This document shows positions 11,771-12,817 of a DNA stretch of 34,361 nucleotides, one piece after another; position 1 is the first letter of the stretch; the number at the start of each line of letters is the position of its first letter. The translations under genes were made by a program, and so were the position numbers. A model generated the notes under the pieces. That model had not been told where the DNA came from. It worked only from the letters and a program-made list of their open reading frames with translations, and did not search any database. Source of the DNA: a virus; the IMG/VR virus record IMGVR_UViG_3300032243_000035, positions 1-34,361 of that record, one strand, 5' to 3'.

Positions 11771-12000
11771 GCTTTGCTAAACCTGAAGTTAAAAAAGAAG
11801 ACAATTTTGACCCGATACAAAAGTTAATGTGTTCTGTGCCTGGCTGCCCCAACCGCTGGTCAGTCCATTTGGATGGAGATAAACCAAAATGTTCTAAGCA
11901 CCAATGGCAAAAAGAGGATTACAAAATGCCCGATTTAAAAGAAGTTTTTAAGAATGCTCGTCCTGTCAAACATTGGCAGGATGATGAGGAGGTGTTTTGA
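11767..12000 (+). CDS. Hypothetical protein with a Zn-ribbon-like CxxC...CxxH motif (77 aa).
   Basis: ATGA overlap with the upstream gene. Motif reads CSVPGCPNRW...KPKCSKHQW. Confidence 0.55.
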   Translation: MSFAKPEVKKEDNFDPIQKLMCSVPGCPNRWSVHLDGDKPKCSKHQWQKEDYKMPDLKEVFKNARPVKHWQDDEEVF

Positions 12001-12809
12001 ATGAGCTGGCTCTTTTCGCAGGCGCTGGTGGAGGAATACTTGGGGGAAAACTCCTTGGATGGCGAACAGTCTGCGCCGTTGAGTGGGAACCCTACCCAGC
12101 TAGCGTATTGTGCGCCCGACAAAATGACGGCCTTCTCCCGCCTTTCCCGATTTGGGATGACGTACAAACCTTTGACGGAAAGCCTTGGGCAGGAATTGTT
12201 GACGTTGTTTCGGGAGGATTTCCATGCCAAGACATCAGCATCGCAGGAAAAGGGGCAGGACTTGACGGAGAAAGTTCCTCAATGTGGTATCACATGGCGC
12301 GGGTGGTTAGCGAAGTTCGACCCCGATTCGTATTTGTGGAAAATAGCCCAATGCTCATTCATAGAGGAATCGGGCGAGTGCTTGGAGACCTTTCCTGTCT
12401 CGGGTATGACTCGCGATGGACTGTTATGGGAGCTTATGACGTTGGAGCGCCGCACCAAAGGGATAGAACGTGGATTATGGCGCACACCCGACACTGGGGG
12501 GGGGGGACATCAGGTCTGCACAAACAAGGCCAAAATCATCGAAAGAATGGTCAACCAATCCAAATCAGATTGGTCGACCAAGTGAACAATCCAAGACTTT
12601 GGCCAACGCCGGTACAGCGGATGTACAAAGACAACGGAAGTCCCTCGGAATACGCAAGGAACGAGATACCCCTAGCGGCACAGGTTGGTGGGCCATTGAA
12701 CCCCGATTGGGTCGAGTGGCTGATGGGGTGGCCGCCAGGGTGGACAGACTTAAGGCCATTGGAAATGGACAGGTATCAAGAGTGGCTGCAACAGCATGGA
12801 GAATCCTAA
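11997..12809 (+). CDS. DNA (cytosine-5) methyltransferase as sequenced (frame 0, 270 aa). The catalytic N-terminal half is joined to a WPTP/MGWPPGWT-type C-terminus and lacks motif X in this frame.
   Basis: Motifs:
- I: LFAGAGGG
- IV: GGFPCQDIS (Cys codon at 12225-12227)
- VI: FVENSP
- VIII: APHQRDRTW

The TTG start overlaps the upstream stop (TTGA). The ORF reads through the G11 tract as WGGGT. Confidence 0.8.
   Translation: MNELALFAGAGGGILGGKLLGWRTVCAVEWEPYPASVLCARQNDGLLPPFPIWDDVQTFDGKPWAGIVDVVSGGFPCQDISIAGKGAGLDGESSSMWYHMARVVSEVRPRFVFVENSPMLIHRGIGRVLGDLSCLGYDSRWTVMGAYDVGAPHQRDRTWIMAHTRHWGGGTSGLHKQGQNHRKNGQPIQIRLVDQVNNPRLWPTPVQRMYKDNGSPSEYARNEIPLAAQVGGPLNPDWVEWLMGWPPGWTDLRPLEMDRYQEWLQQHGES
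12001..12585 (+). CDS. Overlapping frame-1 ORF (194 aa as sequenced). Its protein-like N-terminal half would be completed by the frame-0 C-terminus after a -1 shift at the G tract.
   Basis: The ATG lies 8 nt after GAGGAGG, the best RBS geometry at this locus. There are 194 stop-free codons in the +1 frame of the methylase. The sequence (MSWLFSQALVEEY...SRLSRFGMTYKPLTES...LWRTPDTGGGG) has balanced composition. It resembles, from memory, stand-alone WPTP-type proteins. Confidence 0.5.
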   Translation: MSWLFSQALVEEYLGENSLDGEQSAPLSGNPTQLAYCAPDKMTAFSRLSRFGMTYKPLTESLGQELLTLFREDFHAKTSASQEKGQDLTEKVPQCGITWRGWLAKFDPDSYLWKIAQCSFIEESGECLETFPVSGMTRDGLLWELMTLERRTKGIERGLWRTPDTGGGGHQVCTNKAKIIERMVNQSKSDWSTK

Positions 12810-12817
12810 GTGAATAA
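12470..12817 (+). CDS. Frame-2 segment encoding the canonical C-terminus of a phage-type C5 methyltransferase (motif X). It is reachable from frame 0 only by a -1 shift or an extra G in the tract.
   Basis: WWAIEPRLGRVADGVAARVDRLKAIGNGQVSRVAATAWRIL matches the EP..GRVA.G...RVDRLK.lGN..VP ending typical of phage C5-MTases. No credible independent start. Confidence 0.6.
   Translation: MDYGAHPTLGGGDIRSAQTRPKSSKEWSTNPNQIGRPSEQSKTLANAGTADVQRQRKSLGIRKERDTPSGTGWWAIEPRLGRVADGVAARVDRLKAIGNGQVSRVAATAWRILSE
12496..12506. repeat. G11 homopolymer at the point where reading-frame content switches.
   Basis: Counted directly: acactGGGGGGGGGGGacat. Confidence 0.95.

Follow-up and report, generated by a model that had tools for sequence, protein, structure and literature searches.

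A phage C5-methyltransferase locus probably carried on two fully overlapping reading frames, with a variable G tract at their module junction

How is a DNA methyltransferase gene to be read when three forward frames are open around a single homopolymer and the conserved motifs of the enzyme are distributed among them? The question is raised by a C5-methyltransferase locus in IMG/VR virus record IMGVR_UViG_3300032243_000035, the whole 34,361 nucleotides (nt) of which are referred to here as the window, and in which a run of eleven G residues, the G11 tract, can be read at positions 12496-12506. An initial annotation of this DNA described the three open frames, with coordinates that were reproduced here, and offered three explanations, i.e. 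a homopolymer miscall, a programmed slippage site, and a phase-variable tract that reshuffles N- and C-terminal modules; the last of these fits best, with tract lengths of 10-15 nt and three frame states among 24 relatives. We regard it as probable that the locus represents one phage C5-methyltransferase encoded by two fully overlapping open reading frames (ORFs), termed alpha and beta, with the G tract at the junction of their modules functioning as a three-state switch.

Two overlapping frames in the window and its relatives

The frame-0 ORF of the window carries the C5-methyltransferase motifs I, IV, VI and VIII reported initially, as can be read directly, and its product matches PF00145 (Pfam, E=5e-30), with residues 4-165 alone being covered. 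The frame-1 ORF, again as reported, has its ATG at position 12001, located 8 nt after a GAGGAGG element, and is open for 194 codons. By codon-by-codon reading, one added G makes frame 0 continuous with frame 2 (..HWGGGDIRS..) and frame 1 continuous with frame 0 (..DTGGGGTSGL..), so completing two proteins, a 273-aa alpha and a 269-aa beta, which overlap over ~810 nt. As sequenced, i.e. with G11, frame 0 encodes a chimera in which the catalytic half (motifs I-VIII) is fused to the WPTP-type C terminus, comprising a target-recognition region (TRD) and a motif-IX-like block and lacking motif X, and beta ends at 194 aa. Both the two completed proteins and the chimera had been foreseen in the initial annotation. 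The C-terminal module that is fused to the catalytic domain in the window is, in intact relatives, the C-terminal half of beta; with respect to motifs I-VIII, the IX-like block is thus in another polypeptide (frame +1) in intact relatives, and motif X is in another (frame 2) in the window.

From viral, genome and metagenome collections 328 loci were fetched, and 242 unique loci were assigned to types according to which frames hold motifs I/IV, IX and X. The expectation that both frames stay open in homologous phages holds, 217 of the 242 being arranged with motif IX in frame +1 and motif X in frame 0 (type A). The window-like arrangement, with IX in 0 and X in +2 (type D), is present in 16 loci, that with IX in +2 and X in +1 (type E) in seven, and that with both motifs in +1 (type B) in two; motif X begins exactly 59 nt after motif IX in each of the 240 type A, D and E loci. 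Four annotated phages, i.e. a Manatee Spring virome phage, Acinetobacter phage ABMM1, Pseudomonas phage phPA-G and Salmonella phage S9-5, have fully open and co-extensive alpha (239-304 aa) and beta (240-298 aa) frames, beta starting 4 nt after alpha. In GenBank a single ORF of the pair is annotated per record, as 'methyltransferase' or 'hypothetical protein' at the same place, and because gene callers report one ORF of two, thousands of beta proteins sit in databases as family-less orphans.

Hosts in the genome records include Pseudomonas, Acinetobacter, Burkholderiaceae, Verrucomicrobiota, Planctomycetota and Saccharibacteria, and the methylase family is present in 4 of 5426 E. coli genomes. 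The closest genome record (L085, 90% identity) is a 33-kb contig of a freshwater Burkholderiaceae metagenome-assembled genome, to which the flanking genes are far more diverged than the methylase gene (62-78% vs 90% protein identity). The catalytic half (11997-12500) has 70-84% nt identity to phages of Ralstonia, Salmonella, Acinetobacter, Klebsiella, Vibrio and Microcystis. The conservation of this half, while the flanks are much diverged, suggests that the methylase gene passes between phages as a cassette.

The alpha and beta start codons are typically 4 nt apart, as ATGAATG. A stop codon (TGA in 192, TAA in 21) immediately precedes the beta ATG in 213 of the 234 relatives considered, and an upstream ORF of at least 50 aa terminates at that stop in 82 of the 213. 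The equivalent stop/start junction of the window (TGA 11998-12000, ATG 12001) is likely a site of translational coupling, and the GAGGAGG element at 11986-11992 would act as the ribosome-binding site for both starts.

The openness of both frames is under selection. The +1 frame is open across the entire gene in 206 intact relatives, for which synonymous-codon shuffling of alpha, keeping its protein and codon usage, gives an expectation of 5.9 stops per gene in that frame and leaves it open in 0.2% of shuffles; the +2 frame has 17.5 stops per gene. Conversely, the alpha frame past motif VIII is open when 4.25 stops are expected from synonymous shuffling of beta, 2.4% of shuffles being open. The second codon of alpha, through which the beta ATG is preserved, is AAT in 191 of 197 sequences, whereas Asn elsewhere prefers AAC (233 vs 136). 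A second set of 71 loci was collected with a query consisting mainly of the catalytic domain; in 57 of these the +1 frame is open over at least 90% of the alpha length, most of the exceptions being frameshifted type D loci, seven of them from the clade with the G tract.

Which of the two frames is constrained changes along the gene. In sequence pairs with 85-95% nucleotide identity, differences were counted, in an OLGenie-like manner, by whether they are nonsynonymous in alpha alone, in beta alone or in both; the SS (synonymous in both frames) site class was discarded, as fractional sites gave proportions >1. In the N region (alpha residues 2-165) the resulting dN/dS-like (nonsynonymous to synonymous) ratios are 0.15 for alpha and 0.49 for beta, with 1.31 for a +2 control; in the middle region (residues 166-232) they are 1.00 and 0.24 (control 1.60), and in the C region (residues 233-272) 0.20 and 0.18 (control 1.04). 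Other identity bins agree (N region: alpha 0.12-0.21, beta 0.5-0.7, control 1.2-1.4; middle region: alpha about 1.0-1.4, beta 0.17-0.5). From per-column entropies, beta dominates constraint from about GLW.TP through LNPxWVEWLMGWPxGWTDLKPL, within which the motif-IX-like block LNPxWVEWLMGWPxGWT shows the highest conservation in beta; from GNGQVP onward, alpha is dominant. The modules under constraint are thereby in the canonical order of a C5-methyltransferase, with I-VIII in frame 0, the TRD and IX in +1, and X in frame 0; each frame stays open yet drifts, with little or no amino-acid constraint, over the modules of the other.

The N-terminal half of beta is intermediate in this regard. Among alpha-synonymous changes there, the mean BLOSUM62 score of beta replacements is -0.46, compared with -1.19 expected, the values for the +2-frame control being -0.23 and -0.29. 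The use of synonymous divergence in the flanking genes as a neutral yardstick for this half was abandoned, because the flanks are far more diverged than the methylase and phage mosaicism confounds the comparison.

It could be argued that the +1 ORF is a non-coding shadow, arising from composition or codon bias, given that the amino-acid conservation seen in the N-terminal half of beta follows largely from that of alpha and that AlphaFold2 yields no fold for beta. However, shuffles that preserve alpha almost never leave the +1 frame open, beta-synonymous changes in the middle region are ~4-fold more frequent than beta-nonsynonymous ones while alpha is neutral, and the conserved beta ATG relies on a disfavoured alpha codon, so that the probability of a shadow ORF is next to negligible.

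Beta as a probable second part of the enzyme

The initial annotation expected the repaired frame 0-frame 2 product to match PF00145 from end to end. This is not the case, the Pfam match covering the first 165-187 residues even after repair, but the 273-aa alpha does match PHROG 363 ('DNA methyltransferase') over residues 1-271, i.e. end to end. The repaired frame 1-frame 0 product is by no means without homologs, which had been named as the outcome that would speak against a second protein: 7558 protein clusters match the 269-aa beta, the best of these being 268-269 aa long, with 100% coverage and at most 91% identity. The proposal that this product represents a distinct full-length family is accordingly correct as to length and coverage, but not as to distinctness, the constrained half of beta belonging to the same enzyme as alpha.

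The evidence for the latter comes principally from relatives in which the C-terminal modules are arranged differently. In two Paraburkholderia prophages (L150, L157) and in one database protein (P0114), the beta-frame ORF holds WxTP repeats, LNPxWVEWLMGWPxGWT and ..RIEALGNGQVP in one frame, and alpha terminates directly after motif VIII. As these type B relatives carry TRD, IX and X in the beta-frame ORF, the C-terminal half of beta can be equated with the C-terminal half of a methyltransferase. In Gordonia phage Upyo, gp54 comprises motifs I-VIII, and gp53 comprises LLPTP repeats, LNPKLSEWMMGLPDGHVT and ILGNGVVPQQ, both being annotated as 'DNA methylase'; the gp53 frame is open back across gp54 as a 409-aa ORF, and a weak alignment (E=1.8) was obtained between the IX-X part of gp53 and motifs IX-X in a plant DNA methyltransferase of known structure (4onq). 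In the Upyo locus (L329, 1117-2386), the gp53 frame is open from 1157, covering nearly all of gp54, and the annotated GTG start of gp53 at 1685 may be too far downstream. In Paenibacillus larvae phage Jacopo, gp57 (234 aa, +1 frame) is nested in gp56 (351 aa), both again being annotated as methyltransferase, and gp57 matches the window beta with E=2e-18, including the nearly identical block LNPDWVECLMGFPIGWTD. Beta itself matches PHROG 1008, which is also named 'DNA methyltransferase'. The best reading of these comparisons is that alpha and beta are two parts of a single enzyme, and that beta is not an independent family.

That beta could be a separate protein, with a function unrelated to methylation and overprinted on a methylase gene, was also considered. 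Beta is without a match in Pfam or NCBIfam, its N-terminal half is under some selection for conservative replacements, and this half is open even in type D loci, where it is unable to reach the TRD-IX module. On the other hand, the constrained part of beta is co-linear and homologous with the TRD-IX(-X) half of split methylases, the overlapped region of alpha is unconstrained, as if alpha were without a TRD and motif IX of its own, and the PHROG 1008 match is to a methyltransferase; an unrelated function is therefore very improbable. The constrained modules lie in canonical order in the DNA, with only the middle one in +1, which might also imply a single conventional chain (I-VIII, TRD, IX, X) made by two frameshifts, the first (+1) following motif VIII and the second (-1) following motif IX. 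Such a chain is extremely improbable, as it leaves the open beta leader and alpha linker without reason, no conserved slippery sites were seen, and motif IX shares nucleotides with the pre-X helix, so that one chain cannot hold both.

Length states of the G tract

The G tract is restricted to a freshwater clade, with 65-96% protein identity to the window, and is always at the motif VIII/TRD junction. For the 24 members of this clade an effective tract length was defined as the number of nucleotides between 'gacac' and 'aca/aga'. It is 10 nt in one locus and 13 nt in six, all of which are in frame (7 of 24), and 11 nt in six, 12 nt in six (including the window), 14 nt in four and 15 nt in one, all of which are out of frame. 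Closely related loci differ in length: L166 (G13) and L223 (G11) do not differ in the 480 nt before the tract or the 300 nt after it, and L051 (G14) and L195 (G11) are 97% identical. One further pair, L043 and L044, is identical over the upstream 480 nt; the tract of one is G14 followed by an additional C and that of its partner G12, so that they differ by a net +3 nt and both remain type D.

All three frame states are present in the DNA loci and also in database proteins, the latter including 194-aa truncated beta, 270-276-aa fusions of I-VIII with TRD-IX, of which one cluster (P0121) has 97 member sequences, and 272-aa fusions of the beta leader with X. Runs of at least eight G or C occur at 0.18 per kb in the gene, compared with 0.0099 per kb in the flanks, and, in distant relatives (about 51-55% identity), this junction is occupied by independent homopolymers, i.e. 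C14 in L202 (offset ~494 from the alpha start) and G10 in L258. Tracts at other places in the gene suggest that slippery sequences arose repeatedly in the methylase family: in L022 a G14 run follows motif IV (offset 249), L046, L055, L057, L243 and L172 have G8-10 tracts in the Gly-rich motif I (offset 30-45), and L174 has further tracts at offsets 367 and 633.

A long simple repeat thus lies within coding sequence, and its length differs between close relatives in a manner that changes frame, as in contingency loci; the data fit a hypermutable, phase-variable ON/OFF switch, of which the G11 state of the window would be OFF. Because the tract sits in a dual-coding module junction, one insertion or deletion shifts two proteins at once, giving three product sets.

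Long G runs are prone to sequencing and assembly error, and it may be that the G11 of the window is simply a homopolymer miscall, the real genome having G12 and being an ordinary intact alpha/beta member without switching. The initial annotation had predicted both a repaired state and an in-frame methylase, and each was found: the nearest relative (L168), 96% identical, carries T+G12, and a database protein (P0126), 99% identical, is an in-frame alpha. These relatives are what would be expected if the window were miscalled. However, 17 of the 24 clade contigs, from many samples, are out of frame, with lengths from 10 to 15 that extend beyond ±1; G13 and G11 are found within identical flanks; out-of-frame protein clusters hold many members, as with P0121; and an uninterrupted tract is retained across lineages down to 65% protein identity. 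A miscall is, on balance, unlikely.

A second alternative is programmed slippage, either by polymerase stutter on G11-15 or by a ribosomal -1 shift on G GGG GGG, such that out-of-frame DNA would still give some alpha and beta, and in-frame DNA some fusion. A single -1-type shift restores both proteins together, and the broad, roughly frame-random distribution of lengths would be tolerable with heterogeneous messenger RNA. The sequence G GGG GGG fits the heptamer of a programmed -1 site, but the length of the tract varies, and the sole strong hairpin begins 41 nt downstream, not at 5-9 nt. This hairpin (12548-12580, GGTCAACCAATC..GATTGGTCGACC; z = -3.5 for the 90-nt stretch 12507-12596), which resembles a terminator on the minus strand, was rejected as a frameshift stimulator, given its distance from the tract and its lack of conservation in 20 relatives. 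In addition, ~90% of the family is without the tract and without need of a shift.

Type D loci that are free of a homopolymer have a bearing on the same issue. The arrangement of I-VIII and TRD-IX in one frame, as in ~65 database proteins, was considered as a normal architecture and rejected, since homopolymer-free loci of this type are rare in DNA: six were found, three within the 242 unique loci. These six are L245 (P. aeruginosa), L247 (Acinetobacter soli), L248, L257, L259 and L261, in which the beta leader and the linker-X ORF both stay open around the junction. That the isolates L245 and L247 keep three partial ORFs open at the junction is in favor of slippage; however, the shift points of the homopolymer-free loci differ in place, and in this they resemble ordinary frameshift variants. 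They may either have arisen by recent frameshift mutation or make use of slippage. Taken together, programmed slippage at the tract is a distinctly improbable explanation.

Returning to the proposal of one enzyme on two overlapping ORFs with a switchable junction, the following model can be formulated. Alpha, in frame 0, would provide catalytic motifs I-VIII, a freely drifting linker and motif X; beta, in frame +1 and starting 4 nt after alpha, would provide a weakly constrained leader, followed by the target-recognition region and the motif-IX-like block. One ribosome-binding/coupling site (stop-ATG, typically ATGAATG) would serve both, with terminating ribosomes able to restart in either frame, and, by analogy with the two-polypeptide enzyme M.EcoHK31I, alpha and beta would assemble into a single active enzyme. 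With an effective tract of 13 nt (T+G12 in the window lineage), both alpha and beta would be made (ON); with 1 nt less, as in the window, frame 0 would give the I-VIII/TRD-IX fusion lacking X, and beta would be truncated at 194 aa (OFF); with 1 nt more, the beta leader would be fused to linker-X and the catalytic domain truncated (OFF). These consequences of tract length are predicted from the frames themselves.

Several observations weigh against this model. Beta, its C-terminal half, the type B C-terminal half and a motif-IX profile gave no credible match in Pfam, NCBIfam or PDB sequences (the only matches, to Exotoxin A with E>=0.19, are due to chance), and, because beta is without a Pfam, NCBIfam or PDB match, the motif IX assignment rests on its pattern, on co-linearity with motif X in type B and on one weak alignment. 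AlphaFold2 prediction of the as-sequenced fusion gave a predicted local distance difference test (pLDDT) score of 58, with a value <50 for the TRD-IX C-terminal half (shallow alignment, 68 sequences), and that of beta alone (P0002) gave a pLDDT of 37.6 (shallow alignment, 56 sequences). The N-terminal half of beta is weakly constrained; the dN/dS-like estimator is simplified and is applied to phylogenetically non-independent sequence pairs; and the differences in tract length come from assembled contigs, mostly from Illumina metagenomes, so that some may be assembly errors. The alpha/beta pair is known here from its genes, and the likeness to M.EcoHK31I is drawn from the published description of that system.

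A broader extension of the model is that thousands of clusters, from Proteobacteria to Verrucomicrobiota/Saccharibacteria, are obligate heterodimers, with ~270-aa subunits from the same ~800 nt, and that the tract is a three-state re-partitioning switch; this we put forward tentatively, considering it slightly less probable than its converse. If true, the pair would be among the longest fully overlapping same-strand genes in prokaryotic viruses, and the switch could allow phage populations to spread their risk between hosts restricting unmethylated DNA and hosts restricting methylated DNA. That the homopolymer coincides precisely with the module junction is suggestive of switchable self-methylation among environmental phages, which would affect host range with respect to restriction systems. 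In practical terms, small 'orphan' phage C5-methylases that are expressed from the alpha ORF alone may be expected to need beta.

Locus features and relation to known systems

The features of the methylase locus are collected in Table 1. Just after the methylase, two ORFs at 12810-13046 (78 aa, GTG) and 12820-13089 (89 aa, ATG) overlap in different frames, and homologues of the 89-aa ORF are present in relatives. The window, at ~34 kb, resembles a near-complete podovirus genome, with a P22-like portal and a terminase similar to those of Manatee Spring virome phages; no transfer RNA genes were found in the window (1-34361).

Table 1. Positions of reading frames, modules and signals at the methyltransferase locus (window coordinates)
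Feature	Position	Strand	Remarks
Frame-0 ORF	11997-12809	+	TTG start, 270 aa
Frame-1 ORF	12001-12585	+	ATG start, 194 aa, begins MSWLFSQALVEEY
Frame-2 ORF	12470-12817	+	115 aa, C-terminal end ..RVDRLKAIGNGQVSRVAATAWRILSE
GAGGAGG, Shine-Dalgarno-like, common to both starts	11986-11992	+	4 nt before TTG 11997, 8 nt before ATG 12001
Upstream 77-aa ORF, same frame as beta	11767-12000	+	TGA stop 11998-12000 abuts beta ATG and overlaps alpha TTG
Alpha N module, frame 0, catalytic domain	11997-12495	+	Motifs I (FAGAGGG), IV (GFPCQ), VI (ENSP), VIII (QRDR)
Beta N-terminal half, frame +1, MSWLFSQALVEEY...GLWRTPDT	12001-12495	+	Overprinted on alpha motifs I-VIII
G11 tract at junction of motif I-VIII module and TRD module	12496-12506	+	1 nt below in-frame length
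Beta C module: target-recognition region (..LWPTP..), motif-IX-like block, tail	12507-12809	+	Frame 0 as sequenced
Motif-IX-like block LNPDWVEWLMGWPPGWT	12696-12746	+	Overlaps alpha ..EPRLGRVADGVAARV.. in other frame
Alpha C module: unconstrained linker and motif X	12507-12817	+	Frame 2 as sequenced; cannot be reached from alpha start
Motif X region RVDRLKAIGNGQV	12737-12775	+	Frame 2

The locus family is a deeply sampled natural case of 100% same-strand dual coding, in which constraint alternates between frames, and, with intermediate architectures in existence (nested beta, split alpha/beta and the fully overlapped form), it is suited to studying how overprinting originates and persists. No description of full-length dual coding in phage C5-methylases was found in the searchable literature. 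Within that scope, the features undescribed so far are the 100% overlap with starts 4 nt apart, the size and breadth of the family, and a junction homopolymer that shifts two proteins.

The closest parallel is M.EcoHK31I of E. coli HK31 (Lee, Kam and Shaw 1995), which, as described in two reports (PMC2836561, PMC3404938), is a two-polypeptide C5-methyltransferase with beta wholly in another frame of alpha; alpha carries motifs I-VIII and X, beta carries motif IX, activity needs both chains, and the N-terminal part of beta has a role in association, not in catalysis. The best reading of the window family is that it is a two-subunit C5-methyltransferase like M.EcoHK31I, in which the overlap is extended to 100%. 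A beta ORF in another frame within alpha is present in 217 of 242 loci, and in the window after addition of one G, and the division into an alpha with I-VIII and X and a beta with IX is apparent both from the motif pattern and from frame-specific constraint. There are also clear differences from M.EcoHK31I. The beta of the window family is not nested inside alpha, starting 4 nt after it and ending ~5-14 nt from the alpha stop; it is the beta frame, and not the alpha frame, that is under constraint in the variable (TRD) region; motif IX and the pre-X segment of alpha overlap each other; the family consists of orphan phage/prophage genes outside restriction-modification pairs; and one clade has the hypermutable junction G tract.

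The window family also resembles the gp56/gp57 pair of Jacopo (NC_048718), in which gp57, with its WxTP repeats and LNPDWVECLMGFPIGWTD, is in the +1 frame inside gp56; the genome paper of this phage lists two methyltransferase genes and does not discuss their nesting. By contrast with the window family, the start of gp57 lies ~200 nt into gp56, and ahead of this start the +1 frame is closed. The pre-X segment and motif X of Jacopo are downstream of the gp57 stop, and hence without overlap.

In split C5-methyltransferases of the M.AquI type, alpha comprises motifs I-VIII and beta comprises the distal TRD and motifs IX-X. The window family is similar to this type, as represented by Upyo gp54/gp53, L150 and L157, in that there are two polypeptides, the frame of TRD-IX differs from that of I-VIII, and the beta-frame ORF reaches back over alpha. 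The difference is in motif X, which in the M.AquI type stays with motif IX, alpha stopping after motif VIII, whereas in the window family it is encoded in the alpha frame, over the tail of beta.

Phase-variable DNA methyltransferases ('phasevarions') have homopolymer or repeat contingency loci in the coding region, the length polymorphism of which gives ON and OFF frames. The window clade similarly has a long homopolymer in the coding region, with length polymorphism among close relatives; it differs from phasevarions in that the tract is in a dual-coding region at a module junction and that the carrier is a phage of freshwater bacteria. The two-frame principle itself is already known, from M.EcoHK31I together with the unremarked nested annotations in Paenibacillus larvae phages.

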